Positions 9,180 through 64,000 of a stretch of DNA of 64,000 bases are shown here, in pieces. Position 1 is the first letter of the stretch; each line of letters opens with the position of its first letter. This stretch comes from Candidatus Woesearchaeota archaeon. Its GTDB lineage: Archaea; Nanobdellota; Nanobdellia; SCGC-AAA011-G17; VGLX01. Location of the stretch: positions 7,272-71,271 of the forward strand of contig CAYSAF010000003.1 of the NCBI GenBank assembly GCA_964428965.1, read 5' to 3'. The position numbers were made by a program, and so were the translations under genes. Under the pieces are notes generated by a model, which was not told the origin of the DNA, ran no database searches, and saw only the letters and a list, made by a program, of their open reading frames with translations.

Positions 9180-11048
9180 CTAACCCCTTTCGTTGAAGAA
9201 ATCTTCTATGGCTGTTATGGGCATGCTTGTGGTTATCATCTCCCATTCTTTCGGGAAGCATGAGAGATATTTTTGCCACGCGTATCTTTCATCTACAAAT
9301 ATCCTTACTCCCTTGTCTTGCTTACTCCTTATGCATCTCCCCGCATTCTGTATCGCTTTTAGTATTGCTGGGTATATGTAACCGTATTCCCAGCCCTTTC
9401 CGAATTTCATGTCATAGTATTCTATGAGTTTCTTTGTTTCCAAGTCAGGTTTTGATAGGGGCAATCCTACAACTATCACCCCTTTTAGGTATTCTCCGGG
9501 AAGATCGATTCCCTCACCAAAGCTTCCAGATGAACATCCTAGTAGTGCTGCTCCACTGTCTTTGTACGATTTGAATTTTTCTAGTGTTTCTTGTCTTTCT
9601 TTCTTGTTCATTCCCGGTATTTCTGTGAGTGTTGTTTTTTCGCTGTATGTGTTGAAGTATTTGCTCACGTCTTCGAGCACCTGGTAGCTGGGGAAGAATA
9701 TAGCTACGTTTCCAGGCACAGCGTTCGATAGTTTTGCTGCTACTATTGCTATTTTGTTGTACATATCGCTATTTCTTTCAGTGAACCTTGTTGTTGTTTT
9801 AGGTATTATCAGGTTTAACCTGTTTTGTTTTGGGAATATGTCCTTGTACTCTTTTATTTCTGATTTTATTCCGAATAGGTCTTTGTACATAGTTGTGGGT
9901 GTTAGTGTTCCTGACATGACTACTATTTTTGTTTCTTCTGCTAATGGTTTCATTAGTATGCTCGGGTCCAGGCATCTGTACGATAATGTTATGTAGGGTT
10001 TTCCTTGTTTTGTGAAACCTTTTGTTATTATCCTTGCGAATCCTTCGTCTTGCCCCATCCATTGTTCCATGAACAGCGCTAGGTTGTGTGCTGAGCTTCT
10101 TTTTTTCATTTCTAGTATTTGTTCTGCTACGAAGTACAAGTTGCCATTCAACTTTTCGTATTCGTTTATTTTTGTTATTTCATCGTAGAATTCTTGTTTT
10201 TCTACTGTCGCTTCGTGTGTTTCTATCCTTGTTTTTTCTTTGATGAATTTTTCTAGTACCCCTCCTATTTTTTCCACTTGTCCTGCTAATTCGTATTGCT
10301 CAAGTGTTCTACATTCCTTTGCAGCACTGTCTATCCCCATGGTGGTTATTGTTGCTGTTAGAAGGTCTCTTATCCTGTTGGGTAGGTTGTGTCCCTCATC
10401 GAAGATTAGTGTTATTTCGTTCAGGTCTTTGTTCATCTTGCCCAACAGGCTGTTTCTGATTGACGGATTCAAGGCATGGTGGTAATCCCCTATTAGGACT
10501 TGTGCATTCAGCCCGAGCAAGCAGGATATTTCATACGGGCATAATTTTCTTTCTCCGGACATCTTGCACAGCTCTTCTACATGCAATGGGTTTTTATCTT
10601 CCAGTTCCTTCAATAAGAATTCTGTATCTACGGATGGTTTTCCTTTTTTCTTCACATTGTTGTAATAATCGCATATTCCCTTTTCTATCATGTCGCTGCA
10701 GTATTCCCCGAATTCATTTGAGGTTAATGCTTCCACCCCTTTCTGCTGGCACATCCATCTCTTTCCTATGAAGTCCACTGCAGTAAACTTCGTCTTGTAT
10801 TTTTCCTTAATCTTTCTCAAAGTTTCTATAGCTATTTTGTGTTGTGTGTGCATCGGTGTTATGAAGAACACTGTTTTCTTGTTTTTTATCGCATAGGCAA
10901 GTGCAGGTCCGAGTATGGTTGTCTTCCCCAGTCCGGTTGGCGCATGCATTATCATGTTTTTGTTTTCTTCTAGAAATTTGGCTACGTCTTTTATGAAGTC
11001 TTCCTGTACCTCTCTTATTTTTTCGTGTGGAAAAAGAAATTCTTCCAT
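9180..11048 (-). CDS. xpd: XPD/Rad3-family 5'-3' DNA helicase (Fe-S cluster helicase)
   Basis: It has a Walker A motif (HAPTGLGKT) and a DEAH-box (FDEGHN). A four-Cys Fe-S domain (C..C..C..C in WMCQQ...YCSD...ICDY...KLCPY) lies between them. Helicase motifs V and VI (GRCIRS) are present. Confidence 0.75.
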   Translation of the reverse strand: MEEFLFPHEKIREVQEDFIKDVAKFLEENKNMIMHAPTGLGKTTILGPALAYAIKNKKTVFFITPMHTQHKIAIETLRKIKEKYKTKFTAVDFIGKRWMCQQKGVEALTSNEFGEYCSDMIEKGICDYYNNVKKKGKPSVDTEFLLKELEDKNPLHVEELCKMSGERKLCPYEISCLLGLNAQVLIGDYHHALNPSIRNSLLGKMNKDLNEITLIFDEGHNLPNRIRDLLTATITTMGIDSAAKECRTLEQYELAGQVEKIGGVLEKFIKEKTRIETHEATVEKQEFYDEITKINEYEKLNGNLYFVAEQILEMKKRSSAHNLALFMEQWMGQDEGFARIITKGFTKQGKPYITLSYRCLDPSILMKPLAEETKIVVMSGTLTPTTMYKDLFGIKSEIKEYKDIFPKQNRLNLIIPKTTTRFTERNSDMYNKIAIVAAKLSNAVPGNVAIFFPSYQVLEDVSKYFNTYSEKTTLTEIPGMNKKERQETLEKFKSYKDSGAALLGCSSGSFGEGIDLPGEYLKGVIVVGLPLSKPDLETKKLIEYYDMKFGKGWEYGYIYPAILKAIQNAGRCIRSKQDKGVRIFVDERYAWQKYLSCFPKEWEMITTSMPITAIEDFFNERG

Positions 11049-11070
11049 GTTCCTCTTAATCTCAGTTAAT

Positions 11071-11080
11071 CTTATAAATA
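11071..11080 (+). promoter_or_regulatory. TATA-box-like element (CTTATAAATA) about 25 nt upstream of the 11101 start codon, suggesting a leaderless mRNA
   Basis: The motif reads TTATAAAT in the divergent intergenic region between xpd (minus) and the RNase P subunit candidate (plus). Confidence 0.35.
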
Positions 11081-11100
11081 CTTTTCCCTTGTTTGTTGGT

Positions 11101-11685
11101 ATGTTTTCGGATGTTGTTTTTTGTAAGGATTTTGGTAATCCAGGTTTTTCCAGGGTTTATCATGCTAACCTGATCGTTCCTAACAACGTTAAGGATTTGA
11201 GGAAGAAGGTTAACAAGGAGTTTGGCCTTGTTGTTGTTATGGGTTCTCAGCTTAATCGTGATGTTGTTTCAAACAGTAAGGTTGATATTTTGTTGAGCCC
11301 TCACTCCGGTGTTGTTCGTGATTATTTGCATTCCCGTAATTCAGGTCTGAACGATGTTCTATGTAAATTGGCTAGGAAGAGTAACGTTGCTGTTGGTTTT
11401 TCTTTTTGTGATGTTTTGAACGCTCACGGTGTTGAGCGTGCTCTGATAATTGGTAGGATGATGCAGAACGTTTCTCTCTGTCGTAAGTTTAAGGTTCCTA
11501 TGGTTTTGGGCAGTTTTGCTTTTGATAAGTTCGAGATGAAGCAGCCCAGGGAGCTTATCTCTTTCGCTTTGGTAATCGGTATGAATCCCGGTGAGGCTAA
11601 GAGTGCTCTCTCTTTGGTTGATCATTTAGTTAGCGATAAGCATCTTTCTCAAAGCATTGTTTCTGAAGGTGTTAGGGAGGTATAG
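11101..11685 (+). CDS. Candidate RNase P protein component 3 (Rpp30/Rnp3-like TIM-barrel)
   Basis: Its size of 194 aa and alternating beta/alpha pattern fit a TIM-barrel. The C-terminal blocks GFSFCDVL...ERALIIGRMMQN...PMVLGSFAFD resemble Rpp30. The ORF-track entry 10915..11685 carries an unlikely N-terminal extension that overlaps xpd. Confidence 0.35.
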   Translation: MFSDVVFCKDFGNPGFSRVYHANLIVPNNVKDLRKKVNKEFGLVVVMGSQLNRDVVSNSKVDILLSPHSGVVRDYLHSRNSGLNDVLCKLARKSNVAVGFSFCDVLNAHGVERALIIGRMMQNVSLCRKFKVPMVLGSFAFDKFEMKQPRELISFALVIGMNPGEAKSALSLVDHLVSDKHLSQSIVSEGVREV

Positions 11686-11722
11686 GAAAGTTTTATATAC
11701 ACTTTTTCCCTAATTTTTATCG

Positions 11723-14700
11723 ATGAAAAAGTGGTTTTTTTTACTAATTTTTATTGTTCTAGCCTATTCAAAGATTTGCTTCGCTCAGGGCAATTATTAT
11801 CTCCTGGAGTTCGCCGGTCCGGTGATGCCTGAATGGAAGTCTGAGTTGTCTGAAAGGGGTGTTGTTTTTTCTTCTTACATTCCTGATTATTCTTTCATAG
11901 TTACTTTCGATCCTGCTGTTAAGCAGGGTGTTGAGAGTTTAGATTTTGTTGCTTCCGTCTCTCCTTACAACCCCAAGGTTAAATTTGACCCTTCAATCTC
12001 TAGGAAGCTTTCTTCTTCCCCTTCAATCTCTAGGAAGCTTTCTTCTTCCAGTACTTACGATTTTTATGTTCTGATTCACGAAGGTTCTGACGTTAATGTT
12101 TTGCTTGATGAGTTTTCTAAACTTAATGTTAAAGTCTCTTCAGTTTCTGAGAATCGTTTGAAAGTGTCTGCTAAGTATTCTCAGCTTGATTCCATAGCCG
12201 GTTTTGATTTTGTTTCTTGGGTTGAGGAGGCTCCTCGTTACGTTGTAGTTAACGATATCGCTTCCGGTATAATTTCTGCTAATTTTACTTGGAACAGTTA
12301 TGGTTTGTCCGGTGTTAATCAGAGTGTTGCAATTTCCGACTCTGGCCTTGATACAGGTTCCAACGATAACTTAAGTGAGGATTTTAGGGGTAAGGTTGTT
12401 ATTGTCAATCTGTATGGTGCCTCTGCTGATGATGTGAGTGGTCACGGTACTCATACTGCTGGTTCGCTTGCCGGTTCTGCTAACAATTCTTTTGGTCAGT
12501 TTAAGGGTATTGTATATAATGCTGAAATATTTTTTCAAGCCATCGGTGACGATGCCGGTTCTACTGCTGTTTATCCGCCTACTAACTTGAGTGATTTGTT
12601 TATCCAGGCTTATGAGAACGGTTCCAGAGTTCATAGTAACAGTTGGGGTAGTGATAGTGGTTTTGGTAATTATGTTACTGACTCCCAGACCGTTGACGAT
12701 TTCATGTGGAACTACACTGATTTCCTGGTTGTTTTTGCCGCTGGCAATAAGGGTTCTGCTGTTAACACAGTTGAGTTTCCCTCCACTGCAAAGAATTGTT
12801 TAAGCGTCGGTGCTAGTGAGAACAACAGGACCGATCGTGGTAGCAGCTCTGATAACATAAATGAGGTTGCTTCTTTCAGTTCACATGGTCCTGCTGATGA
12901 TGGTAGGGTTAAGCCTGATTTGGTTGCTCCCGGTACTTCCATCGTTTCTGCTAAGTCTTCTCTTGGTGTTACGAGTTGTACTTCTTCTTATGAAAGCAAC
13001 GGTAACTATTCGTACTGTCAGGGCACTTCGATGGCCACCCCATTAGCTGCTGGTGCCGCTGCCCTGGTCAGGGAGCATTATCTTAACCTTAACGTTAATC
13101 CCTCTGCTGCTTTGCTTAAAGCCACCCTTATTAACGGTGCCATGGACTTAGGTTATGGAATTCCAAGTAATGAGACTGGTTGGGGCCGTATCAACCTTTC
13201 AGAATCGCTTCACCCTGCTAAGCCCAGGGTAGTTAATTACACCGACTATTCTTCTGGTTTGTCTACAGGCGAGTCAATTTCTTACAACTTTACTGTGTAC
13301 AACGAGTCTTCTCCTGTTAAGGTCACCGTTGTCTGGACTGACTATCCTGGTAGTCCCTCTGCTGCCAAGGCCCTTGTTAACGACTTGAATCTCGTTGTCA
13401 CATCTTGTGACGGTTCTGTTTTCAACGGCAATGATTATGTCAAGCCTTTTTATGATCAGGTTGATGATACTAATAACGTTGAGCAGGTTAACATATCTAA
13501 CGTCAGCATGGGCTCTTACCTTGTTAACGTTTCTGCTTTTAACGTTCCTAACGGCCCTCAGCCCTTTGCTTTGGTTGTTTCTGGTCCTGTTACTTCTTTC
13601 ATTAATCTGCTTACAGGAGACAACTCTGCTTTTAACTCGATGGGTGTTTTCCTTAACTTTTCTGTTGATGATTCTTATAACGAGAGTAATTGCTCTCTTT
13701 TCTTGAACGATGAGTTTAATCAGAGCTTGGTCATGGCTGGTGCTGAGTCTTTCTTTGAACTTAACCTTTCTGACGGTTCTTACAACTGGTCTGTCCAGTG
13801 TTTCGAAGGAACGTTTAACGCTGCTAGCGATGTCCTGTTTTTCGTTGTGGATTCTTCACCAAGCATAATTGTAACGAGTCCTGAGAACCTGACTTATCCT
13901 TCATCCAGTGTTGATTTGAATTTTTCTGTTGATAGCTTTGACAGTTGTTGGTACAACCTAGGTTCAGGTAACATTTCACTTGTCTCTTGCGCTAACACCA
14001 CCCTTGCTTTGGCTGAGTCTTCTTACCTTATTTATGTTTACGCTAACAACACTAACGGTTTGGAGAATTTTTCTTCAGTTGCTTTCAGAGTTGACATAAC
14101 CTATCCAGAAATATCTTTAGTCTCTCCTTCTGACAGCTCTTCTTGGACCTCTTCCAACTCAGTTGATTTCTCATTTAACGTTTCAGATTCAGAGATCGAT
14201 AGTTGCAACTTGTTTGTTGACAATGTTGTTGTGCTTACTAACGACTCTGCTGATGTGGGTCAGCAGTATCTTACTTACACTTTGTCTAACGGTGTTTACA
14301 ACTGGAGCGTTTCCTGTTCTGATTCGGCAGGAAATCTTAACTCCTCACCTTCTTATTCCCTGACTGTTAGCTATGCCCCTACTCAGTCTGCTTCTCCCGG
14401 TGGGGGTGGCGGAGGCGGTGGAGGGGGTGGTAGCAGGGTTGTTGCTTGTGAAGAGTCTTGGAGTTGTTCGTCCTGGTCTGGTTGTGTTAGCAACTCTCAG
14501 GCAAGAGATTGTGTTGATTTGAACGATTGCGGCACCTCTAATAAGAAGCCCATAACCTACCAGGTTTGTGTTTCTGAGCCTTCAGGTTATGTTGTTGAGC
14601 AGAACAAGATCCAAGAGCTTTCCGGTGCTACTGTAGCCGAGAAGCCTAAAACCATTCAGAGTTCTTTCAGACTCCCTGACTATCAGCTCAACAAGCTGTA

Positions 14701-14779
14701 TTTCTTCGGTCCCCTTGCACTTATTCTCTTTATCATTCTTACATACATAATTTACAAAAACTTCTTGTTGAAGAAGTAG
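11723..14779 (+). CDS. Subtilisin-like serine protease (peptidase S8), secreted and C-terminally membrane-anchored
   Basis: It has a signal peptide and the catalytic D/H/S blocks (AISDSGLDTG, GHGTHTAG, GTSMATPLAAG). The C-terminus carries a Gly11 linker, a Cys-rich module (CEESWSCSSWSGC...C..C) and a TM helix. Confidence 0.8.
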   Translation: MKKWFFLLIFIVLAYSKICFAQGNYYLLEFAGPVMPEWKSELSERGVVFSSYIPDYSFIVTFDPAVKQGVESLDFVASVSPYNPKVKFDPSISRKLSSSPSISRKLSSSSTYDFYVLIHEGSDVNVLLDEFSKLNVKVSSVSENRLKVSAKYSQLDSIAGFDFVSWVEEAPRYVVVNDIASGIISANFTWNSYGLSGVNQSVAISDSGLDTGSNDNLSEDFRGKVVIVNLYGASADDVSGHGTHTAGSLAGSANNSFGQFKGIVYNAEIFFQAIGDDAGSTAVYPPTNLSDLFIQAYENGSRVHSNSWGSDSGFGNYVTDSQTVDDFMWNYTDFLVVFAAGNKGSAVNTVEFPSTAKNCLSVGASENNRTDRGSSSDNINEVASFSSHGPADDGRVKPDLVAPGTSIVSAKSSLGVTSCTSSYESNGNYSYCQGTSMATPLAAGAAALVREHYLNLNVNPSAALLKATLINGAMDLGYGIPSNETGWGRINLSESLHPAKPRVVNYTDYSSGLSTGESISYNFTVYNESSPVKVTVVWTDYPGSPSAAKALVNDLNLVVTSCDGSVFNGNDYVKPFYDQVDDTNNVEQVNISNVSMGSYLVNVSAFNVPNGPQPFALVVSGPVTSFINLLTGDNSAFNSMGVFLNFSVDDSYNESNCSLFLNDEFNQSLVMAGAESFFELNLSDGSYNWSVQCFEGTFNAASDVLFFVVDSSPSIIVTSPENLTYPSSSVDLNFSVDSFDSCWYNLGSGNISLVSCANTTLALAESSYLIYVYANNTNGLENFSSVAFRVDITYPEISLVSPSDSSSWTSSNSVDFSFNVSDSEIDSCNLFVDNVVVLTNDSADVGQQYLTYTLSNGVYNWSVSCSDSAGNLNSSPSYSLTVSYAPTQSASPGGGGGGGGGGGSRVVACEESWSCSSWSGCVSNSQARDCVDLNDCGTSNKKPITYQVCVSEPSGYVVEQNKIQELSGATVAEKPKTIQSSFRLPDYQLNKLYFFGPLALILFIILTYIIYKNFLLKK
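11990..12049 (+). repeat. In-frame 30-nt tandem duplication (x2) inside the subtilase propeptide region
   Basis: CCTTCAATCTCTAGGAAGCTTTCTTCTTCC is repeated exactly and encodes PSISRKLSSS twice. Confidence 0.8.
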
Positions 14780-14793
14780 TTGTAGCGTTTAGA

Positions 14794-14802
14794 GGGTGAA
14801 GG
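14794..14802. repeat. Left copy of the 9-bp target-site duplication GGGTGAAGG
   Basis: The same 9-mer occurs at 19718..19726, immediately outside the inverted terminal repeats. Confidence 0.55.
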
Positions 14803-15300
14803 AGCTTTGCCTGATAAGTGACCCCTACCCGAAAAGAAGATAGTATGCCCGAAAAGTCAAAAGGGGGTAGATTTACAAAGTTTTATTAAGGAATACTGCC
14901 TTATACGAGTGTCTTAGCCCACTAAATGGTGGGTGGGGGATATAGGGTTTGTTTTTTGAACCCCCTCAACAGTCTTAACCCTTAAAAAAAATCTTATCGA
15001 GCAAACCCTTAAAAAACTTCTTAAGCTCATTCTTACTTAGGGGGTTGTGATGAGAACACCAAAAAACTCTGTATCCCTTAAAAAAGAACAATACAAGGGA
15101 GGTGGGGTTGCTATGATTCGGGTGGATGATTATACAGTCTTGTTAATCATAATCTTGGTCGTAGTTGTCTATATAACAACACACTCTATGTAAAAATAGA
15201 TGTGGTTGTTATTAGAAAAACTATTTTTCTTTTTTTATTTTCAATTTTAGTTGCAGTCTTTACGGATTTTAAGGGCAAAAGCATTTTAAGGAGATAGTTT

Positions 15301-15495
15301 TTGAATGTTTTTATGGGATGTGAAGAGATTGTTAGGTCTTTGTTTGTTAAAATGCTTGATAAGAACAATTTTGATTATGAAAAGACTATAGGGGTGTTTG
15401 TTGATGTTCTGAATGAGGTTGTTATGCGTAAGAATTATCTTGAAGAAAAGGCAGGTTTTAAGATAGAAAGGGTGGTTATTCTGGGGAAGAGTTAA
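15301..15495 (+). CDS. Small hypothetical protein (64 aa) inside the transposon
   Basis: The ORF is convergent with the RM gene and overlaps it by 4 nt. It has no recognisable family. Confidence 0.2.
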   Translation: MNVFMGCEEIVRSLFVKMLDKNNFDYEKTIGVFVDVLNEVVMRKNYLEEKAGFKIERVVILGKS

Positions 15496-18116
15496 GTAAC
15501 TAAGTTGCCAAACTCTTCTTTTAATGAACTTATTTTATTTACAGCTTCCCACTTGCTTTCAAAAGCTTCTCTTATCTTTTTCTTTATTTTCTCTCTTTCG
15601 TTCTTGTCTTTTGCAATCGGAAGGTAAAGTTCTTCCCATCTTCTTGCTATGTTAGGTAAGGTGGTATCAATTAGGACTTTGTTATAGAGTTGTTTTTGGG
15701 TTAATTCATGCGAAAATAGGTATAATAAATAGAAGGGGTCTATTCCATATTCATTCTCTTCATTTACTACCCTAAAGACATGGATTTCCCTTGTTAAAAG
15801 AACTTCTGTGTCAGATTTGGAAACCATAGCTACACTACCTATCCTATAACTACCTCTCCTAACGAAAAGAACATCTTTCTCTTTTAAGTCTCTGTTATTC
15901 CCTTTTATTTGTTTGTAGATTGTTTCTGGAATTAGGGATGTTGGGTTTTTGTAAATCTCCCAATTTACAATATCTGCAACACGAACATAAGGCACATCCC
16001 CCTTTCCTTTGTATTTCCCTGCTGGTGAGCCATGCCCACTAAACTCTTTTATAATCCCCTTATTAATTAACTCTTTTACCTGAACAAAGTTTAAGTTTTG
16101 ATTTTCAGCCTCTCTCTTTAATTTTTCAATTCTCTTATTCCAATAGTATCTCGGGACAAAAACATTATTCTTTATGTCTTTCATATCCACAACAAATGTG
16201 TTCTTATTCTTTGGGTCTGCTGGATTATCTAATTCTTTTCTGATTATTTCAGTATCGTCCCATATTTCTTCTGTAAATTTATGGTTAGCTTCATCGTATC
16301 TATAAACTGGTTTCCCATTATGGTCATGCCCTATTTCCTCAGCTACACCCATAATAATTTTATCTTGTTGTTGGATGCCTTTTTCTAAAATTAATAAAAG
16401 AGTTTTTGCATTATTATGAGGTCTAAATGTATTATGGGCAAGGTCAATAATCACAATTATATTGTTATTTTTTCTTATATAATTTAAAACATATCTTGAG
16501 TTTGGAGCATGAAAATACGTTTCTGGAAGAACTATTGCTAATTTACCCCCTTCTTTTAACATATCAAAACATCTTTCAATAAAAAGAACTTGTGGTTCTG
16601 TGTCCCTGTATTCTTCAGTTTTTACCCATTTGTCTTCTTCTTTTTTCCATATATGCCCTAAATCAAAATTTTTTGCTTCCTCTGCTAAAACTTTGTGCTT
16701 TTTACCAAAAGGGGGGTTAGTTAAGATTATATCAAATTTCTTGAATTTTCCTTTTTCGATAAAAATATCCTTTGCTCTTTTTTCAAATTCCTTTGGTGAA
16801 TGTAGGCTATTCTGTTGAACAATACCTCCTCTCCCATCTCCAACAATTGCCATATATGCCTTAGCTATTTTTACTAAATCTATTTCTTTGTCTATACCAA
16901 AAAAATATTTTTCAGCAATTTCTTTTTTTATTATGTCTAAATCTTTTATTCCACTGTATCTCTTATCAGTATCCATAATATTCCAAATGTTTTCAAGAGC
17001 ATAAATTAAAAAACCACCACTCCCACAGGCAGGGTCTAATATTGTTTCTTTTGGTTGGGGGTTAATTATTTTAATTGCTGTTTTAACTACTTCTCTGGGG
17101 GTAAAAAATTCTCCTTTTTCTCCAACTAACTTACTTTCTGCAAATACCTCAAAAGCATCTCCAATAACATCTTTATATAACCTTGCTGTTTCAGAAAAAC
17201 TAAAAGGTTCTAATTCACCAACAACATAAGCTACAGATTTCGCTTCTAATTTAATCTCTTCTTCATTATCAAAAACTCCATCACTAACTAATTCATCTTT
17301 AACTTCTTGAAATAATCCTTCAATTCTTTCTTTAACTACCTCTGGGTTTTCATTAAAACCAATTCTAAATTCTGGTAATGCTTTTGGGTTATATCTTTCA
17401 TCCCAAATTTTACAAAAAATAAGTCTTATCATTTCGTTACCAAGTTTTTCTCTTCTACTAATGTTGGTATTGGAATAAAGAGTATTTAGTAATCTTGTAA
17501 AAATTAGTTTAAGATTTTTAGACGGTTTTAATTTATCTTTTGATATTCTCCCTATTTCTTCCCAAGTTTCTCCTCTTTTTGGTATTTGATAAACAAAATT
17601 TCTTTTTATTCCCCCTGATTTTTGGTCTCGGTAAATATACTCTATTTCTTTGCCATTTGTCCATACCCCCCAAGAACATGAAGTCGCAGTCATGTAAGTC
17701 ATTAATTGCTTTACCCCCTCTTTTCTTGTAGGTCTTTTAGTTTCAACTATACCAAGAATATCTTCATTTTGTTCCTTTTTATTTTTGTCTCCTGTTTTGT
17801 AAATAATAATATCAGCAAAATCGGTTTCTCCTTTCTGTTTTTTTGTCCCTCTTCTTATTGGAACATTAATCTCCATAAGAGAATAGTGATAGTCATAATC
17901 TTCATAAAGGACTTTTTCATAATCTTGTCTAACCTTTTCTTCAGGAGTATCACGAACTTGTTTACCTGTTGCTTTATCTATAATATAACCCTCTTTTAGT
18001 GTGGTAACTTCTTTTGGCATATGTTTGCTATGTTTTTGTCCTTTAAGAACTTTTCGAAAGATATTTTCACGCTTTAGAGCCACTCTAAAGTGAGAACGGT
18101 TCTGTTTTTTTAACAT
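15492..18116 (-). CDS. Single-chain Type IIG/IIL restriction-modification enzyme (PD-ExK nuclease + gamma-class N6-adenine MTase + HsdS-like TRD)
   Basis: The N-terminus has a PD-(D/E)xK-like motif (FADIIIY...IVETKRP). The centre has MTase motif I (ILDPACGSGGFL) and motif IV (ILTNPPFGKK). The C-terminal 300 aa resemble an HsdS target-recognition domain (VPRYYWN, GDVPYVRVADI, DVLFVRRGS). The likely start is MLKKQN at 18116, 2 nt after the transposase stop; the longer ORF-track call extends into the transposase gene. Confidence 0.7.
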   Translation of the reverse strand: MLKKQNRSHFRVALKRENIFRKVLKGQKHSKHMPKEVTTLKEGYIIDKATGKQVRDTPEEKVRQDYEKVLYEDYDYHYSLMEINVPIRRGTKKQKGETDFADIIIYKTGDKNKKEQNEDILGIVETKRPTRKEGVKQLMTYMTATSCSWGVWTNGKEIEYIYRDQKSGGIKRNFVYQIPKRGETWEEIGRISKDKLKPSKNLKLIFTRLLNTLYSNTNISRREKLGNEMIRLIFCKIWDERYNPKALPEFRIGFNENPEVVKERIEGLFQEVKDELVSDGVFDNEEEIKLEAKSVAYVVGELEPFSFSETARLYKDVIGDAFEVFAESKLVGEKGEFFTPREVVKTAIKIINPQPKETILDPACGSGGFLIYALENIWNIMDTDKRYSGIKDLDIIKKEIAEKYFFGIDKEIDLVKIAKAYMAIVGDGRGGIVQQNSLHSPKEFEKRAKDIFIEKGKFKKFDIILTNPPFGKKHKVLAEEAKNFDLGHIWKKEEDKWVKTEEYRDTEPQVLFIERCFDMLKEGGKLAIVLPETYFHAPNSRYVLNYIRKNNNIIVIIDLAHNTFRPHNNAKTLLLILEKGIQQQDKIIMGVAEEIGHDHNGKPVYRYDEANHKFTEEIWDDTEIIRKELDNPADPKNKNTFVVDMKDIKNNVFVPRYYWNKRIEKLKREAENQNLNFVQVKELINKGIIKEFSGHGSPAGKYKGKGDVPYVRVADIVNWEIYKNPTSLIPETIYKQIKGNNRDLKEKDVLFVRRGSYRIGSVAMVSKSDTEVLLTREIHVFRVVNEENEYGIDPFYLLYLFSHELTQKQLYNKVLIDTTLPNIARRWEELYLPIAKDKNEREKIKKKIREAFESKWEAVNKISSLKEEFGNLVT

Positions 18117-18118
18117 TT

Positions 18119-19336
18119 TTATTGTTCCTCTGTTGTGAATTCTCCTCGTATTCCTATGGTGTGCATTTCCATTATGACTACGCAGATGTTGTGTGCTATT
18201 ATTTTGCATAGGACTTCGTTGGTTTGTGCTGTCCAATTCTTACTACGGACAGAGTCTCCGAATTTGGTTTTTATCATAAAGACTGTGCTTTCTGCGTTTG
18301 AACGCCTGTGGTAGTGCGTTAGGAATTCGTCGTTGTGCAGGGAGAAGTAGTGGTATAGTTTTTTCCAGACCATTCCCTTCTTGTTAGGAATAGAATTGCT
18401 TTTGAATGGTATAAAGGCTTTTGTTCCTTGTCCTTCTATGAGTTCGAGGTTGTCTTTTGATAGGTATGCTTTGTCTCCTGATAGTTCTTGCATATCAAAA
18501 TGCTCTGCGGTCTTTTGGTAGAGTTCGGGTAGTTGTGGGCAATCATTATCAAATTCAGAGGTTATCTTAGCAGAGGTTATTATGTTGGTTTTAGTTCCAC
18601 AGAGGAAGTGGCATTTGACCCACTTTCTACTGCTTATTTCTCTTCCGTGTTTGAAGCTGAACCATCTCTGGAATTGGCTTGTTCCGAAGCCTGTTGCGTC
18701 TATGGTAAAATCCTTTTCAACACTTCTCAGAGGCAAACTTGTTATTGTTATAAGATTGGAGAGTATGGATGTTAGTTCTGGCTTGTTGAAGTAGTCAAAC
18801 ATGGTGTTGTAAGGTATCTTCTGGCTCACAAACTCATTTGCTTTTGCTTCTTCCATGTCCGTGTTAAATCTACGACCTGAGAACGTGCTGTAAACCTTAA
18901 AGACCATCGAATAAACCATATCGCTTAGGGGTGTTGTGGGTCTGCCGAAGCTGTAAGTTTGGTTTGGTATTCCGCTTGTGAGGTCTGATAGGAGTTTCAT
19001 AAAAAGTTCTTTCTCATGGGTCTGTGCGAGGTTGTAGTTCTTCCAATCCTGAGGGTATGTTTTCTTTATTGTTTGGGTTATTGTTACGTTCCCATTTTGG
19101 TCTATTTGTTGTGTTACTATGAGTTCTACTGCCCAGATGTGCTTACACTTGCAGCCCCTGTCTTGGTGGTCTAGGCAATTGCATGAAGCCCCAAATCCGT
19201 TGCTCTTAACGATGTAAATGCCTTTTCCACTTTGGCTTGGGACTTTCCAATCTCCCTTTTCGTTTCTTTCTATTCTGCTTGTTTGGGCTATTTGTAAGCC
19301 CCTTTCTTTTCTTCCGTCTTGTTGTTGATTTTCCAT
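18119..19336 (-). CDS. DDE transposase (IS4/IS5-superfamily-like) with an N-terminal SWIM zinc finger
   Basis: The SWIM-type C-x-C-x(n)-C-x-H motif is CNCLDHQDRGCKCKHIWAVE. The DDE triad candidates are IDATG, LSGDKAY and YHRRSNAEStvFmIKtKFG, which follow the Y-x2-R-x3-E signature. Confidence 0.7.
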   Translation of the reverse strand: MENQQQDGRKERGLQIAQTSRIERNEKGDWKVPSQSGKGIYIVKSNGFGASCNCLDHQDRGCKCKHIWAVELIVTQQIDQNGNVTITQTIKKTYPQDWKNYNLAQTHEKELFMKLLSDLTSGIPNQTYSFGRPTTPLSDMVYSMVFKVYSTFSGRRFNTDMEEAKANEFVSQKIPYNTMFDYFNKPELTSILSNLITITSLPLRSVEKDFTIDATGFGTSQFQRWFSFKHGREISSRKWVKCHFLCGTKTNIITSAKITSEFDNDCPQLPELYQKTAEHFDMQELSGDKAYLSKDNLELIEGQGTKAFIPFKSNSIPNKKGMVWKKLYHYFSLHNDEFLTHYHRRSNAESTVFMIKTKFGDSVRSKNWTAQTNEVLCKIIAHNICVVIMEMHTIGIRGEFTTEEQ

Positions 19337-19458
19337 TTTCTTACCTCCAAACTTATAGTAATATAGTTAGATATATAACTATATAAATACTATTGAGAGA
19401 CAAACTATATATTACAAGATAGGTATATTTATATATTACTAAATAACTATCTTACCCT

Positions 19459-19599
19459 ATGGAGAGGGTTACAGTTGGGCTAAAGATAGACCCTGACCTG
19501 TGGAAAGAGGTAAAACACAGATGCATAGATGAAGGGTTAGAATATTCTGAATTTGTGGAACGGGCTTTAAAGGAAGCCCTAAAAAAGAAGAAGCCTTAA
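19459..19599 (+). CDS. Small ribbon-helix-helix (CopG/Arc-like) protein, 46 aa
   Basis: The sequence MERVTVGLKIDPDLWKEVKHRCIDEGLEYSEFVERALKEALKKKKP has an N-terminal beta-strand followed by two helices, as in the RHH fold. It is divergent from the transposase and lies inside the element. The ORF track omits it because it is under 60 aa. Confidence 0.4.
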   Translation: MERVTVGLKIDPDLWKEVKHRCIDEGLEYSEFVERALKEALKKKKP

Positions 19600-19695
19600 G
19601 GCACGATAATTATTTCTGTAAAATAAAACAACCTTTCCACTATCCATTTTTATTCTGCCCGATAAGTGTTAATCCTGCCTGATAAGTCAGACTTT

Positions 19696-19717
19696 TCGGG
19701 GACTATTCGGGCAAAGC
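19696..19717. repeat. Right terminal inverted repeat of the transposon
   Basis: GGGGACTATTCGGGCAAAGCT is the imperfect reverse complement of the left end at 14803..14825. Confidence 0.5.
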
Positions 19718-19802
19718 TGGGTGAAGGAAAAAATTTATAAAGCTCATAACTTTATTGTTTTTTGGTCGAGAAGGAGAAGAAGAGATTTTTCTCTGATTTT
19801 GG

Positions 19803-20141
19803 GTGAATAAAATCAAACCTGTTTTGCCAAGCCTGAGGGAAAAGAAGCGTTACCTCATGTTTGAGGTGGTTGCTACGCACTCCTTGAGCTTTGATGAGGT
19901 TAGGCGCAGTATTAATGCATCTTTGCTTCAGTTTCTTGGTGAGTTGGGCTTTGCTAAGGCAGGAGTCATGATTTTGGAAGATTGGAAGCACAACAAGGGT
20001 ATGATTAAAGTGAATAATAAATACGTTGATGATGTAAGGGCCGGTCTGGCTTTGATCAGCAAGTTTGGTAACGAGCCGGTTATAGTTAGGACCTTGGGCG
20101 TTTCCGGTATATTGAGAAAAGCGAGGGCCAAGTATTCATAA
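19803..20141 (+). CDS. rnp2: RNase P protein component 2 (Pop5/Rpp14 homolog)
   Basis: It has the characteristic N-terminal REKKRYLMFEV motif. The 112-aa size and its position at the head of the psmA-exosome superoperon both fit Pop5. Confidence 0.6.
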   Translation: MNKIKPVLPSLREKKRYLMFEVVATHSLSFDEVRRSINASLLQFLGELGFAKAGVMILEDWKHNKGMIKVNNKYVDDVRAGLALISKFGNEPVIVRTLGVSGILRKARAKYS

Positions 20142-20147
20142 AGGAGG

Positions 20148-20870
20148 TTGATTGTTATGGAACAAATGCAGCATCAGATGATGGGTTATGACCGTACAAG
20201 TACCATGTTCAGTCCTGACGGTCGTTTGTTACAGGTAGAGTATGCTAAGAAGGCTGTTAAGCAGGGGACTACAGCTATAGGCATGGTCTGTCGTGACGGC
20301 GTTTTACTTGTTGCTGACAGAAGGATGACTGAGAAGTTGATTGTTGCTAGGTCTGTTGAGAAGGTATTTCAGGTTGATGATCACATCGCAGCAACTTCTT
20401 CCGGCTATGTTATGGACGGAAGGATTCTGATTGAACGTGCCCAGTTGATCGCTCAGCAGTACAAGGTTGGCAATGATGAGCCTATTGATGTTATCGAACT
20501 GGTTAAGGAGATTGCTGACGTTAAGCAGTTCTTCACCCAGTACGGGGGTGCCCGTCCTTTTGGCGTTTCGATATTGTTTGCTGGTGTTGATGATAAGCCC
20601 TCTCTGTTTATGACAGATCCTACAGGGATATTTTTCGAGTTCAAGGCTACTGCTATCGGCGAAGCTGAGAACGAGATCAAGGACATCCTTAACAAGGAGT
20701 ACAAGGAGACTCTGAGCATAGATGATGGTTTGAAGCTTGCCGTTAAGGCTTTGAAGAAGGTTCTCGGCAAGGATTTCGGCATCGAAAGGATTGATGGTGC
20801 TTACATAAATCTTCAGGATAAGATGTATACTAAGCTTGACAGGAGTAGGTTGGCTAAGTTGGGAGCTTGA
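20148..20870 (+). CDS. psmA: Proteasome subunit alpha
   Basis: It has the N-terminal YDRTSTMFSPDGRLLQVEYA signature and is 240 aa. Confidence 0.85.
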   Translation: MIVMEQMQHQMMGYDRTSTMFSPDGRLLQVEYAKKAVKQGTTAIGMVCRDGVLLVADRRMTEKLIVARSVEKVFQVDDHIAATSSGYVMDGRILIERAQLIAQQYKVGNDEPIDVIELVKEIADVKQFFTQYGGARPFGVSILFAGVDDKPSLFMTDPTGIFFEFKATAIGEAENEIKDILNKEYKETLSIDDGLKLAVKALKKVLGKDFGIERIDGAYINLQDKMYTKLDRSRLAKLGA

Positions 20871-21574
20871 ATATGACGAGTGTTGACGAAGCAGTTATTG
20901 CCAGGTACAGGGTTAAGAACATTAATTTTGAGATCTTGGTAGACTGTGATAAAGCGCTTGAGTTTAAGGAGGGTAATGCTTCCCTTGACGATGCTTTGGT
21001 TACCAATTCCGTTTTCAGCGACGTGAAGAAGGGTGAGCATGCTAAGGAAGCTGATTTGATGTCTGCTTTCAAGACTAGTGACTACAGGCATATTTCTGAG
21101 CAGATTATCAAGCACGGTGAGATCCAACTTACTGCTGAACACAGAAACAAGATGCGTGAGGAAGTCAGGAAGAAGATAGTTAACATGATTCATCGTAACG
21201 CTATAGATTCTAAGACTGGTTTGCCTCATCCGCCACAGCGTATCGAGCTTGCTATGGAACAGGCAAAGGTTAGGGTTGATGAGTTTAAGAAGGCTGAGGA
21301 GCAGCTTCATGAGATCGTTGAGAAGCTCAGGCCCATCCTACCTATCAAGTTTGAGGTTCGCGAGCTTGCTGTCAAGATCCCAGCTAAGTACACATCTCAG
21401 TCTTATCACATATTGAAGGGTTACGGTAAGATTCTCCGTGATGAGTGGCAGAATGACGGCTCGCTTGTTTGTCTTATTGAGCTGCCTTCCGGTCTCAGCG
21501 AGGAGTTTGAGGATGCTTTGAATAAGTTGACTCACGGTGAGGTTGATATGAAGTTAATAGGTAAGCGAGGTTAG
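20867..21574 (+). CDS. sdo1: Ribosome maturation protein SBDS/Sdo1
   Basis: It has the N-terminal FYSH domain block (ARYRVKNINFEILVD), is 235 aa, and sits at the conserved position between psmA and rrp4. Confidence 0.75.
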   Translation: MNMTSVDEAVIARYRVKNINFEILVDCDKALEFKEGNASLDDALVTNSVFSDVKKGEHAKEADLMSAFKTSDYRHISEQIIKHGEIQLTAEHRNKMREEVRKKIVNMIHRNAIDSKTGLPHPPQRIELAMEQAKVRVDEFKKAEEQLHEIVEKLRPILPIKFEVRELAVKIPAKYTSQSYHILKGYGKILRDEWQNDGSLVCLIELPSGLSEEFEDALNKLTHGEVDMKLIGKRG

Positions 21575-21575
21575 A

Positions 21576-22268
21576 ATGAAAGAAGATATGGTTAATGATA
21601 AAGACATCGTGGTTCCGGGTGAGGAGCTTGCTGTTGGTATGGACTATGTTCCATCTACCGGCACTTATCGTGACAGTGATAAGATAATTGCTGCCCAGCT
21701 TGGTATTGTTAATATTGCTGGCCGTGTTATCAAGATCATCCCCCTGAATGGTCGTTACATGCCCAAGATTGGTGACGTTGTTATCGGCAAGGTTGCCAAC
21801 ATGACCTTTTCAAGCTGGTTTATTGATATAGGCTATGCTTACGAAGCTGTCATCTCTTTGAAGGATGCTACCTCTGAGTTTATAGAGAGGGGTGCTGATT
21901 TGAGTAGGTACTTTGATTTTGGTGACTTGGTTGTTGCTAAGATTGTTAACGTTACCAAGTCTAATGCTATTGATTTGAGTATGAAAGGTCCTGGCTTGCA
22001 CAAGCTGAAGGGTGGTAGAATAATTTATGTCACTCCTTCGAAAGTTCCTCGTATCATCGGTAAGCAGGCTAGCATGATTAACCTTGTTAAGGAGAAGACG
22101 GGTTGCAAAATAACCGTAGGTCAGAACGGCTGGGTTTGGATCGAGTCTGAAAATCCTAAGAAAGAGCTGATTGCTAGCAAGGTCCTTGAATACATAGATG
22201 AGAACGCTCACAAGAACGGTCTGACCGATGACGTTTCTAACATGTTGGCTAAGGAGTTGAGGGGATGA
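21576..22268 (+). CDS. rrp4: Exosome RNA-binding subunit Rrp4 (S1 + KH domains)
   Basis: It has an S1-like central region and a KH motif (KVPRIIGKQASMINLVKEKTGCKITVGQNGWVWI). Confidence 0.8.
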   Translation: MKEDMVNDKDIVVPGEELAVGMDYVPSTGTYRDSDKIIAAQLGIVNIAGRVIKIIPLNGRYMPKIGDVVIGKVANMTFSSWFIDIGYAYEAVISLKDATSEFIERGADLSRYFDFGDLVVAKIVNVTKSNAIDLSMKGPGLHKLKGGRIIYVTPSKVPRIIGKQASMINLVKEKTGCKITVGQNGWVWIESENPKKELIASKVLEYIDENAHKNGLTDDVSNMLAKELRG

Positions 22269-22885
22269 AGTTGTTTAATTTTGCAATAGGTAATGTTTAT
22301 AACGACAAGGGGAGGTATCTTAAAGAGATTAAGTACAAGCACGAAATGGTAGGGGAGGTGTTGGGTGATAAGTCTGGTAAGGTGTTGGATTTGGGTTTTA
22401 ATCAAGCACCAAACACCTTTTTTAAAGGTTTTGTTTACGGAGTGGATAAGGAAATTAGTGGTAAGCCAAGCAATTATGTTGAAGTGGTAAAAGCGGATTT
22501 GGATTGTTGTGACTCTCTGCCTTACTCTGATAAAAGTTTTTGTACCATATTGGCTTATGATATATTGGAACATCTGGAGTGTATGCCGAAAGTTCTTAAT
22601 GAGTTACACCGCATCCTTGCTGATGATGGTATCTTAGCAGTTACTGTGCCTAATTATGGCGGTATTAATATGACAGTAATCAAATTTTTTAATAAAGACC
22701 ATTCAGAGCATCACATTTACGATTTTGATAGGGAGTTTGTGGAAGCTGGTTTTGTTATAACTGAAAAGTTTTTTTTCAGGTTCAAAATGCCTTTTATCTA
22801 TTTTGTTATAATCAATAAGCGTGTTCCCAAACTGTTATCAACAGGGGTGGCATACATACTAAAAAAGCGGGGTTTGAAGAGATGA
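22265..22885 (+). CDS. Class I SAM-dependent methyltransferase (Methyltransf_11-like)
   Basis: Motif I is VLDLGFN and the post-I acidic residue is in YGVDKE. A C-terminal LAVTVPN block is present. It overlaps rrp4 by 4 nt (ATGA). Confidence 0.55.
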   Translation: MKLFNFAIGNVYNDKGRYLKEIKYKHEMVGEVLGDKSGKVLDLGFNQAPNTFFKGFVYGVDKEISGKPSNYVEVVKADLDCCDSLPYSDKSFCTILAYDILEHLECMPKVLNELHRILADDGILAVTVPNYGGINMTVIKFFNKDHSEHHIYDFDREFVEAGFVITEKFFFRFKMPFIYFVIINKRVPKLLSTGVAYILKKRGLKR

Positions 22886-23574
22886 TTGACGCTTGTGATA
22901 AGATATGGCTTGAAGGTAAGTACAAGTGGACTCCTTCTTATCACACTCATGTTTTCTGGCTTAAGAAATCCATGAAGGCTTTGGGTAGTAGTTTGCTTGA
23001 TGTGGGTTGTGGTGATGGTTCATACGTGAACAACATCATCACAAAAAAAGTAGATTATACGGGCATAGATCATTCAGAAATAGCAATCGGTGAGGGGGTT
23101 AAGAAAGGTTTTAATGTCATGTTAGGTGATGCTGAATGTTTCGGTTTTGAAAAGAAATTTGATGTGATAATAGTTAATGATGTTTTGGAACACATAAACG
23201 ATGACGTGGCGTGTCTGAAATGCTGTTGCAAAAATCTGAGAAGCGGAGGCACTTTGATAGTTAGTACCCCCATACACATGAAGTATTGGTCGGGTAATGA
23301 TGACGAGTTTGGTCATAAGAGAAGATACGACCCTGATGGGATAATAAGAATGTTAGAAGCAGAAGGTTTTGAGATTGTTGAGGTTAGATATTGGGGTTTT
23401 CTCATACCGAACTTCTTGTTTCACTTCAGAGAAGTATTTAAGAAACACAAACGTAACCTTATAGGGGTGGCTAAGATTATAGGTCTTGCTGATTGTGCTT
23501 TCTCAAATAGATTGTTTAGTGTGAAATCCAAAGGTATGTTAATCAAAGCAACTAAGAAGGAGGAGTTGAAGTAA
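22882..23574 (+). CDS. Class I SAM-dependent methyltransferase
   Basis: Motif I is LLDVGCGDGSY, motif II is YTGIDHS, and motif IV is FDVIIVNDVLEH. It overlaps the upstream MTase by 4 nt and is followed directly by rrp41. Confidence 0.6.
   Translation: MIDACDKIWLEGKYKWTPSYHTHVFWLKKSMKALGSSLLDVGCGDGSYVNNIITKKVDYTGIDHSEIAIGEGVKKGFNVMLGDAECFGFEKKFDVIIVNDVLEHINDDVACLKCCCKNLRSGGTLIVSTPIHMKYWSGNDDEFGHKRRYDPDGIIRMLEAEGFEIVEVRYWGFLIPNFLFHFREVFKKHKRNLIGVAKIIGLADCAFSNRLFSVKSKGMLIKATKKEELK

Positions 23575-62282: not shown

Positions 62283-64000
<1,718 letters not shown>

Follow-up and report, generated by a model that had tools for sequence, protein, structure and literature searches.

Evidence for an IS903-related, cargo-exchanging transposon family of DPANN archaea located immediately upstream of BRE/TATA promoter elements

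Introduction

Genes that are not needed for transposition can travel inside a single insertion sequence (IS), and in ISfinder an element in which one transposase and one pair of ends enclose such passenger genes is called a transporter IS (tIS). Here we describe an element of this general kind from a 64,000-nucleotide stretch of DNA of a Candidatus Woesearchaeota archaeon (contig CAYSAF010000003.1, referred to below as the window). The transposon occupies 4,916 bp at 14803-19718, with a perfect 9-bp target-site duplication (TSD) outside imperfect inverted ends, and carries a restriction-modification (RM) gene, a transposase gene, and a small regulator gene to a site just upstream of the promoter of a Pop5-proteasome-exosome operon. 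As in a tIS, one IS-type transposase and one end pair enclose passengers that are absent from the empty site of a related genome (L031), but in the family to which the element belongs the passengers are overwhelmingly RM or other defense genes and are swapped very quickly. Our incomplete coverage of the literature turned up no tIS that belongs to the IS903 group, that comes from DPANN archaea, or that is targeted in the promoter register.

The eukaryotic retrotransposons Ty3, Tf1, and Dictyostelium TRE integrate at a set position with respect to the initiation complexes of Pol III or Pol II, and their tethering by proteins has been demonstrated; the archaeal TATA-binding protein (TBP) and transcription factor B (TFB) correspond to eukaryotic TBP and TFIIB-family factors (TFIIIB in the case of Ty3). 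The archaeal family shares with these elements a fixed distance from an initiation landmark, compact host genomes, and re-use of sites, whereas they are retroelements with integrases and the family consists of archaeal DNA transposons with a DDE transposase, for which tethering is hypothetical. Mutator and Mutator-like elements (MULEs) of eukaryotes and their IS256 relatives combine a SWIM finger with a DDE domain, with the finger being C-terminal in MULEs. A CxCxnCxH signature with a DDE domain, a TSD of about 9 bp, and subterminal repeats are common to both groups, but the catalytic domain of the archaeal family is DDE_Tnp_1 (IS4/IS5 type) and its SWIM-type finger lies N-terminal to it.

Tn7-like transposons with defense cargo (Benler et al. 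2021, PMC8649781) are likewise site-directed, have variable, defense-rich cargo and asymmetric multi-repeat ends, and use a "safe" landmark beside a conserved gene. They make a 5-bp duplication and recognize one specific gene, whereas the family described here duplicates 9 bp at a generic promoter by means of a single IS5-type transposase; its orientation is free, and it shows no sign of target immunity, since tandem arrays occur. No TnsA-, TnsB-, TnsC-, or TnsD-type domains were found by Pfam in the open reading frames (ORFs) of the element or of 10 relatives. Mobile RM units likewise combine RM genes with transposase homologues and travel as units (Furuta et al. 2010, PMC2853133; Takahashi et al. 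2011, PMC3031569). Those described are mostly from bacteria, vary in kind, and are often composite or flanked by IS elements, whereas in the family described here a single group of transposases systematically has RM genes between its own ends.

Our results make it very likely that the element is an IS903-related, cargo-exchanging unit transposon of a DPANN family that lands just upstream of the TFB recognition element and TATA box (BRE/TATA) of its host's promoters.

Results and discussion

Boundaries of the element

The features of the element and its insertion site are as follows.

14794-14802, no strand: left TSD copy GGGTGAAGG, an exact match to 19719-19727; the L031 empty site has a single 9-mer here
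14803-14856, plus strand: A-type (cargo-side) end, with an inverted repeat at 14803-14819 and three direct 11-bp repeats TGCCYGAWAAG at 14808, 14826, and 14846
14857-15491, no strand: AT-rich interval with three copies of AACCCTTAAAAA and two unsupported small ORFs at 15047-15193 (48 aa) and 15301-15495 (64 aa)
15492-18116, minus strand: candidate single-chain RM enzyme of 874 aa, with HSDR_N_2, N6_Mtase (NPPF), and an HsdS-like target recognition domain (TRD); an alternative start at 18020 gives 842 aa
18119-19336, minus strand: transposase of 405 aa, with a SWIM-type CxCx9CxH finger and an IS903/IS5-type DDE domain, from Pfam, NCBIfam, alignment with IS903, and an AlphaFold2 (AF2) model
19337-19458, no strand: AT-rich divergent control region, with two 24-bp direct repeats at 19406-19429 and 19430-19453 and inverted repeats
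19459-19599, plus strand: ribbon-helix-helix (RHH) protein of 46 aa, RHH_1 above the gathering score
19656-19718, minus strand: B-type (transposase-side) end, with an inverted repeat at 19702-19718 and the 11-bp repeat three times, once terminally and, inverted, at 19676-19686 and 19656-19666
19719-19727, no strand: right TSD copy GGGTGAAGG, an exact match to the left copy
19728-19741, plus strand: BRE/TATA-like promoter element AAAAAATTTATAAA of the Pop5-proteasome-exosome operon, abutting the TSD and conserved in the L031 empty site
19803-20141, plus strand: Pop5/Rpp14, first gene of the downstream host operon (Pfam RNase_P_Rpp14, 7.6e-15; synteny with L031)

The 9-mer GGGTGAAGG is present in the window in two exact copies, at the positions listed and nowhere else, against a chance expectation of 0.30 copies, and two copies were reached in 3 of 100 shuffles. 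Directly inside the two copies lie inverted repeats of 17 nt, AGCTTTGCCTGATAAGT at 14803-19 and, on the minus strand, AGCTTTGCCCGAATAGT at 19702-18, which are 82% complementary (3 mismatches in 17) and begin with AGCTTTGCC; the corresponding degenerate end pattern is expected 0.04 times by chance, and an inverted-repeat-like match at 30164 was dismissed as such. A subterminal repeat, TGCCYGATAAGT, is found at 14808, 19656, and 19676, with a one-mismatch copy at 14846; its matches in the window number 5 against 0.52 expected, and the one at 63384, inside gyrB, was rejected as a chance occurrence.

An initial annotation, made from the letters of the window, had proposed a cargo transposon with a 9-bp duplication and termini matched at about 80%, and the TSD, the inverted repeats, and a DDE transposase were all found. 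Its left TSD coordinate (14794) stands, while the right copy, given as 19718-19726, is corrected here to 19719-19727; likewise, the subterminal repeat that it described is present, but at 14808, 19656, and 19676 rather than at 14809, 19655, and 19675. Our strongest evidence that the arrangement is not due to chance comes from elsewhere, namely, from 60 other loci in which a homologous transposase is enclosed by ends of this type and an exact 9-bp TSD. On the basis of these sequence comparisons, we count the boundaries as demonstrated and regard 14803-19718 as an intact unit transposon.

The empty site

The initial annotation had named in advance the search for an uninterrupted locus as a way of being proven wrong, and such a locus demonstrates the insertion. 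L031, a related metagenome-assembled genome with about 77-82% nucleotide identity that was found through its Pop5 homologue (P0122, 76% identical), has the gene order of the window, with RNase P p30, the S8 peptidase, Pop5, proteasome alpha, SBDS, Rrp4, Rrp41, and Rrp42, but its peptidase and Pop5 genes are separated by 64 bp only. By BLASTN, L031 1-3768 corresponds to window 10999-14793 and L031 3774-6312 corresponds to window 19724-22260, so that exactly the element and one TSD copy are missing. The empty junction reads ...GCGTTTTGATAATAAAGGAAAAAATTTATAAAT..., and the host site as reconstructed from the window reads ...TTTAGAGGGTGAAGGAAAAAATTTATAAAG...; the subtilase 3' region is thus joined in L031 to the TATA box in front of Pop5 (rnp2), just as had been expected for the window after removal of the element.

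An abundant DPANN family

The transposase has 2,768 homologues at E <1e-3, with those that carry taxonomic names belonging to Woesearchaeota, Nanoarchaeota, and Aenigmarchaeota, and more than 565 metagenome loci match it. We fetched 23 genome and 80 metagenome loci and delimited elements by an exact 9-bp direct repeat flanking at least 12 of 16 complementary terminal positions around the transposase. Sixty loci qualified, corresponding to 54 distinct elements of 2,203 to 10,456 bp, and every terminus starts with RGCTTTG; one relative (L002), for example, is 6,945 bp long and has the same inverted repeat and a perfect 9-bp TSD, TATTATAGA. Membership of the window element in this family is demonstrated by these shared ends and duplications, and the search of genomes and metagenomes for other copies that the initial annotation had suggested turned up the 54 delimited elements. 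In contrast, the view that a transposon mobilizing an RM gene is unusual for an archaeon did not hold, as the element is a member of a very common DPANN family. No relatives were found in IMG/VR viral contigs.

The family is not one of simple IS elements of about 1 kb that consist of a transposase alone, as the window element has at least three genes and the smallest relative measures 2,203 bp. We found no account of the family, of archaeal cargo transposons of the IS903 group, or of archaeal insertion in the promoter register in the literature, of which our coverage was incomplete and did not extend to ISfinder; in a 2026 survey of archaeal IS elements, SWIM, passenger genes, and DPANN do not come up except among the references. 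The family thus appears to be undescribed.

As a separate observation, a single bacterial-hosted member was seen among those examined. The element in L024 (8706-11844, Candidatus Angelobacter sp.) has a 40%-identical transposase, GGCTTTG ends, and a 9-bp TSD, and its insertion site has no BRE/TATA-like motif.

Relationship to IS903

A tblastn search against plasmids matched thousands of enterobacterial IS5-family elements, and a query with the IS903 terminus retrieved elements annotated as "IS5-like element IS903 family transposase." An IS903 copy of 1,057 bp (L114, 1201-2257) has GGCTTTGTTGAATAAATC at both ends, and termini of the archaeal family (GGCTTTGTTGCATAAG, GGCTTTGTAAAATAAG) are close to it; a Klebsiella match (L112) was rejected as the source of the IS903 ends, being a truncated relative with ends of the type GGCGTTGTTGACC.... 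The window transposase is 26% identical to that of IS903 (E 9e-14) over residues 210-383, the catalytic core. IS903 makes a 9-bp TSD and has the preferred flank motif WTTYA-N9-TRAAW (PMC2577343). The two groups therefore have in common their termini, the 9-bp TSD, a DDE_Tnp_1 core with Y-x2-R-x3-E, and a preference for A-rich bases outside the TSD. They differ in that IS903 is 1,057 bp long, with one gene and simple 18-bp inverted repeats, whereas members of the archaeal family are 2.2 to 10.5 kb long and have cargo, a divergent small regulator gene, and non-equivalent ends with three binding-site-like repeats each. IS903, moreover, is an enterobacterial element, the flanking IS of Tn903, and has a palindromic target (WTTYA-N9-TRAAW), while the family has archaeal hosts and a one-sided, promoter-shaped target. 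These sequence relationships indicate that the family descends from, or is sister to, the IS903 group of the IS5 family; in archaea, relatives of IS903 would then have given rise to a variety of true cargo transposons whose ends are asymmetric and multi-site.

The transposase itself had been read in the initial annotation as a SWIM-DDE protein with a YxxRxxxE motif, and for the DDE part the profile searches agree with this. The 405-aa protein matches Pfam DDE_Tnp_1 (PF01609, E 2e-16, 60.6 bits against a cut-off of 23), and its catalytic residues D213, D288, and E349, with the motif Y342-x2-R345-x3-E349, are invariant in family alignments. The NCBIfam equivalog transpos_IS5_2 scores 121.2 bits against a cut-off of 140 and covers residues 199-384 only. 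For the window element, DDE_Tnp_1 was the only match to a transposase family in Pfam, and the NCBIfam matches were to IS5, IS1182, ISNCY, IS4, and IS982, with none of the IS256 or MULE type. The archaeal N terminus is longer than that of IS903-type transposases (by about 80-100 aa) and contains the SWIM-type finger. Pfam SWIM (PF04434) reaches 14.1 bits against a cut-off of 19.6 on the window protein and is annotated on several of its homologues; the signature C52-x-C54-x9-C64-x-H66 is invariant at all four positions in a 12-sequence alignment, and among 53 aligned sequences the three cysteines never vary and H66 is kept in at least 90%. An AF2 model (pLDDT 83) places strands and then helices at residues 30-74. 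In a fold search with this model, the top whole-chain match was Tn5 transposase (TM 0.42-0.43), and for the N-terminal domain only general DDE/RNase-H-fold matches (Tn5, piggyBac, integrases) came back, their E-values weak and none of them particular to the N terminus.

Asymmetric ends

The 11-bp repeat corresponds to bases 6-16 of the inverted repeat and is concentrated at the ends of the family's elements, with 17 per kb in the terminal 150 bp compared with 0.35 per kb elsewhere within them. The two ends can be told apart in 49 of the 54 elements, with the A end having the repeat at positions 6, 24, and 44, all direct, and the B end having it at 6 (direct), 33, and 53 (both inverted); at least one end could not be typed in the remaining 5. 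The window element has its A end at the left, on the cargo side, and its B end at the right, on the transposase side. The transposase gene faces the B end in 41 elements and faces away from it in the window's clade of 8. The repeat varies by sub-family (TGCCCGAWAAG, TGCACAAWAAG, TGTTGCAWAAG), and such co-variation is as expected of transposase-binding sites, which these repeats putatively are.

Derivatives of 86 bp that consist of the ends alone, resembling miniature inverted-repeat transposable elements, also occur. In a peat-soil subgroup, such mini-elements belong to tandem arrays of 2-3 members at one promoter (L102 7557-13189, L097 5738-12485, L096 21-8333, L106 865-11458, and L107 8613-14056), with the same 9-mer, CCAAATCAA or TCGATCCGG, between units; the promoter beneath these arrays drives a small winged helix-turn-helix (wHTH) gene (L092, 11964 onward).

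Insertion in register with the promoter

Fifty-four empty sites were reconstructed, and base counts were taken over 47 non-redundant ones. The interior of the 9-mer and one flank show no conservation, while the other flank has the consensus G-A-A-A-N-N-T-T-T-A-T-A-W-A from the first base past the TSD, with G at +1 in 31/47 sites, A at +3 and at +4 in 43/47 each, T at +9 in 42/47, A at +12 in 42/47, and A at +14 in 41/47. The target register of the family is thus the TSD, then RAAA/GAAA, two unspecified bases, and TTTAWATA, and by its sequence we identify this flank as an archaeal BRE and TATA box. In a strict test, a site had to agree with GAAA at 3 or more of 4 positions and with TTTAWATA, placed with its first base at +6 to +8, at 6 or more of 8, in either orientation; 39 of the 54 sites passed against 0.45 expected from the 0.84% of control positions in the same loci that do so (binomial P 7.5e-69), and the promoter register is to this extent demonstrated. 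The best TATA match starts at +7 in 39/54 sites and at +9 in 8/54. Moreover, a co-oriented ORF of at least 50 aa begins 32-57 nt past the TSD in 26 of the 45 sites with enough flank, and we therefore take these for real promoters, many of which drive leaderless genes. The window site fits the pattern (GGGTGAAGG|AAAAAATTTATAAAG), with the start of the Pop5 ORF 76 nt past the TSD; the insertion had already been placed just upstream of the Pop5 promoter TATA box, and this position now appears as the target specificity of the family and not as incidental. The B end faces the promoter in 28 cases and the A end in 24, so insertion orientation is free and orientation-specific docking at the promoter was rejected, as was a palindromic target of the IS903 type, since the far flank is uninformative.

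Our results lead us to favor active targeting that involves the extra N-terminal domain. The 405-aa transposase would bind the arrays of 11-bp repeats, three at each of the structurally different ends, and would move the element by cut and paste with a 9-bp staggered cut, as homology with IS903 suggests. The 9 bp directly upstream of a BRE/TATA element, here that of the Pop5-proteasome-exosome promoter, would become the TSD, and because they are duplicated, the promoter would keep its native upstream context and the insertion would be nearly neutral, making this a "safe" landing spot in a gene-dense genome. The transpososome may be positioned by BRE/TATA either through direct read-out of the DNA or through DNA bent by bound TBP and TFB, with the added SWIM-containing N terminus being the obvious candidate for the recognition module.

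A different explanation, which we judge unlikely though far from negligible, dispenses with dedicated targeting and combines an IS903-like preference for A-rich flanks or bendable AT-rich DNA with purifying selection that, in gene-dense DPANN genomes, spares only insertions just upstream of promoters. The IS903 motif WTTYA-N9-TRAAW does share the A at +3 and +4 with the archaeal consensus, and the specificity seen in archaea may for this reason elaborate an ancestral preference. In bacteria, IS5-family elements are captured by H-NS-bound AT-rich DNA (PMC11335895), which fits this explanation and is also a precedent for guidance by a host protein. The free orientation would also fit, and the sites that we analyzed are all fixed, old insertions, with no de novo events among them. 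However, the signal is one-sided, extends 14 bp past the TSD, and has single-nucleotide register (TATA at +7 in 39/54), while the mirror half-site that an IS903-type preference would have on the other flank is uninformative. If an intergenic share of about 10% is assumed, selection would yield a rate of at most about 8%, compared with the 72% observed. Selection alone, furthermore, does not predict tandem arrays with the same 9-mer, which would result from repeated insertion at a position defined by the promoter and not by the 9-mer.

Several points weigh against the reading of the element as a promoter-directed transposon of an IS903-related family. It is drawn from sequence comparison throughout. 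The search for copies covered the 64-kb window, where tblastn and blastn with the element found no second copy. Fifteen of the 54 sites fail the strict test, although most of these still show a TATA box at +7 or +9. A rigid docking complex might predict one orientation, and orientation is free; AAA at +2 to +4 could be an inherited IS903-like RAA flank preference instead of promoter recognition. The transposase is under the NCBIfam IS5_2 cut-off, and SWIM is under the Pfam threshold in the window copy. Finally, the family may already be described elsewhere, for example, in ISfinder.

We would go further only tentatively, toward a proposal that we hold to be possible but more doubtful than probable, namely, that this is the first prokaryotic DNA transposon lineage to use the archaeal pre-initiation complex (TBP and TFB on TATA and BRE, or the promoter DNA that they shape) as a landmark, by means of its SWIM module. 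It would then be an archaeal counterpart of Ty3/TFIIIB tethering and a general DPANN shuttle for RM and defense genes and, occasionally, tRNAs and transporters. If an archaeal transposase does read the transcription initiation complex, promoter-tethered integration would not be solely eukaryotic. Targeting to the upstream edge of BRE/TATA is an unusual and testable property, and insertion exactly there, with the upstream context regenerated by the TSD, suggests how a transposon may survive in a compact genome. A single transposase with a cargo capacity of at least 9 kb and predictable, non-disruptive insertion might also become a tool for archaeal genetics.

Modular cargo, mostly for defense

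In the first contexts that we examined, a methylase or RM gene lay beside every transposase, and the kinds of system differed. A Pfam survey of individual relatives and of 131 cargo proteins that were 140 aa or longer found N6_Mtase in 18 of them, Methylase_S in 13, N6_N4_Mtase in 12, HSDR_N_2 in 8, EVE in 5, D12 methylase, DruA, and HerA/NurA in 2 each, and EcoRI methylase in 1; BglII and MvaI endonucleases, Type III Mod and Res, and GmrSD-HNH were further cargo. Clustering placed a methylase of the N6_Mtase/HsdS type or the N6_N4 type in 29/54 elements, and with L011, L080, and L081 added, at least 32/54 carry a DNA methylase or an RM system, which supports, at the level of the family, the specific IS-RM association suspected from the window alone. 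Complete multi-gene systems are present in sister elements, such as Type III Mod and Res or an EcoRI-type methylase with its partner. Non-defense cargo includes a Liv-type ABC transporter and an O-methyltransferase (L019), as well as proteases in other elements. We also noted tRNA genes as cargo, with tRNA-Leu(TAA) at L092 9473-9562 and a tRNA-Ser-like gene and tRNA-Tyr at L097 6687-6849.

Transposases that are 58-88% identical are accompanied by cargo methylases that are 22-32% identical, and this far greater divergence of the methylases argues for independent acquisitions of cargo. Cargo diversity is demonstrated directly by L017 (3028-11236) and L019 (3836-11236), whose transposases are 98% identical within a 1,644-bp core of 95% nucleotide identity. 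This core consists of a Zn-ribbon gene, the transposase gene, and the B end, and similarity ends where the Zn-ribbon gene ends; beyond it, L017 has Type III Mod/Res and DUF2779, and L019 has the unrelated ABC transporter and O-methyltransferase. Cargo in the family, as judged from its sequences, is modular and mostly for defense. For DPANN archaea, which have gene-dense genomes of about 1 Mb and no cultured genetic system, the family would be an abundant and concrete vehicle for defense-gene traffic.

An ORF just upstream of and divergent from the transposase gene is found in 50/54 elements and mostly encodes a small DNA-binding-type protein (RHH, Zn-ribbon, AbrB-like, or wHTH), with a large cargo protein in its place in 5. 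In the window, the divergent gene encodes the 46-aa RHH protein already proposed there, which scores 22.1 bits with Pfam RHH_1 against a cut-off of 20.5. Between the starts of the two genes lie the 24-bp tandem repeats at 19406-19453 (TATATATTACAAGATAGGTATATT, TATATATTACTAAATAACTATCTT) with overlapping inverted repeats; these are likely operator and promoter sequences and candidate operators for the RHH protein, which probably controls the shared promoter region.

The RM gene of the window element

The ATG of the RM ORF lies 2 nt after the transposase stop, as first read and as the ORF positions bear out. Members of the window's clade typically have their first cargo gene either overlapping the transposase stop or starting 1-9 nt beyond it, which suggests that cargo and transposase are co-transcribed, and the RM gene is probably no exception. 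Its product matches Pfam N6_Mtase (2.8e-35, residues 315-654), HSDR_N_2 (4e-16, 59.5 against 25 bits, residues 58-170), and Eco57I (7e-14), that is, a gamma-class N6-adenine methylase preceded by a PD-(D/E)xK-like N-terminal nuclease domain. The best PADLOC match is MTase_II (278 bits), with Specificity_I at residues 694-863, and REase_MTase_IIG is matched weakly and in the methylase core only (39 bits, E 6e-11). The TRD resembles an HsdS-like cargo protein in L012. Neither the NPPF motif of the methylase nor the D...ExK motif of the nuclease is disrupted, and the latter is kept across homologues at 64-80% identity.

A nuclease, a methylase, and a TRD in one chain make up the Type IIG architecture. 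The initial annotation had predicted a complete Type IIG enzyme; the nuclease-methylase-TRD order in a single chain stands, with N6_Mtase found by Pfam and the HsdS-like TRD by PADLOC Specificity_I, whereas the IIG label is read from architecture and the best PADLOC match is MTase_II. From the PADLOC matches, the similarity of the TRD, and the intact, conserved NPPF and D...ExK motifs, the best reading of the 874-aa cargo is a predicted single-chain Type IIG-like enzyme. We judge it unlikely, though by no means negligible, that it is instead a solitary methylase or a degenerate enzyme with an epigenetic or anti-restriction role, or with a part in a larger MADS-like system, and no active restriction, in which case what the element mobilizes would fall short of a complete defense system. 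Such a role would account for the PADLOC scores (278 bits for MTase_II compared with 39 for REase_MTase_IIG), for homologues named "N-6 DNA methylase" or "type I restriction enzyme M protein," and for the top NCBIfam match, the MADS MAD2 methylase at 360 bits. HSDR_N_2, however, is well above its threshold (59.5 against 25 bits), D...ExK is conserved across the homologues, the one-chain order of domains is that of Type IIG, and sister elements carry complete multi-gene RM systems. The MAD2 score (359.7 bits) is half of the 720 cut-off and the other MADS genes, like further defense genes, are absent from the element, so membership in MADS was rejected.

The start of the RM gene may be either 18116 or 18020. 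A database protein (P0237, 842 aa) is 100% identical to the window protein and starts at its M33, window position 18020, while the 32-aa N-terminal extension is conserved in 5 of 10 homologues examined.

The nearest homologues of the RM protein, at 78-80% identity, are not beside a transposase of the family. Their occurrence in distant hosts, together with the low GC content of the gene (0.32 compared with 0.41 for the transposase gene), indicates recent horizontal acquisition, presumably with passage between bacteria, viruses, and DPANN archaea. Two such homologues, 78-79% identical, have the following surroundings. One (L118, 6001-8526, in the complete Nealsonbacteria genome CP179889.1) is in a defense island of this candidate phyla radiation (CPR) bacterium with an integrase, AbiTii, and DUF4145, and the other (L115, 57-2675) is on a viral-looking contig with about 20 small co-oriented genes.

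Persistence of the insertion

The same insertion is present in L029, an independent assembly that matches window 18906-22846 (3.9 kb) at 100% identity. A contig from another sample, L030 (ENA ERZ27284381 k139_646510), matches 19630-20513 at 99.9%, including the B end, the TSD, and Pop5, and its first 53 nt differ from window 19577-19629 and contain AACCCTTAAA, a motif repeated at window 14977-15084. Judged from the sequence, L030 would represent either a variant element with another interior at the same site or an assembly chimera.

That the element is an immobile, fixed relic with host-domesticated genes is an explanation to which we give little credence, even though the window holds one copy, the insertion recurs in the second-sample assembly L029, and the inverted repeats have 3 mismatches in 17. 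Imperfect repeats and differing A and B ends are the norm in the family, the two TSD copies match perfectly, and none of the ORFs for the transposase, the RHH protein, and the RM enzyme is truncated, with the catalytic and zinc-finger residues all conserved; the joining of the same right end to another interior in L030 hints at ongoing variation. The notion that the RM gene was resident and a plain IS landed beside it, with the left boundary mis-assigned, could appeal to the GC difference (0.32 for the RM gene and 0.41 for the transposase gene), but we consider it refuted, as L031 lacks the RM, transposase, and RHH genes together, with the break exactly at the inverted repeat/TSD boundaries, as the left end carries the triple repeat of the family's A type, and as dozens of relatives have cargo inside ends of the same type.

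Other features of the element and its surroundings

The roughly 630 bp at 14857-15491 had no Pfam, NCBIfam, PADLOC, or Rfam match and no similarity to other family members, and no non-coding RNA was returned when 14600-19900 was scanned with Rfam at E-values of up to 1. The three repeats that the initial annotation had pointed out in this non-coding DNA are present as copies of AACCCTTAAAAA at 14977, 15004, and 15073; their number is weakly significant (8 of 100 shuffles), but they are clustered. The CCCTTAAAAAA repeats are confined to 14977-15084 and absent from all other family loci except for the 53-nt variant segment of L030. GC content is about 30-32% in the RM gene, about 41% in the transposase gene, and about 43% in the flanks.

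Downstream of the element, the window has an extra 1.3 kb relative to L031 between the Rrp4 and Rrp41 genes (22261-23559). No inverted repeat or TSD was seen at this segment, which has a lower GC content of about 0.36-0.38 and holds two class-I S-adenosylmethionine (SAM) methyltransferase genes, at 22265-22885 (Methyltransf_11) and 22882-23574 (Methyltransf_23/11/12).

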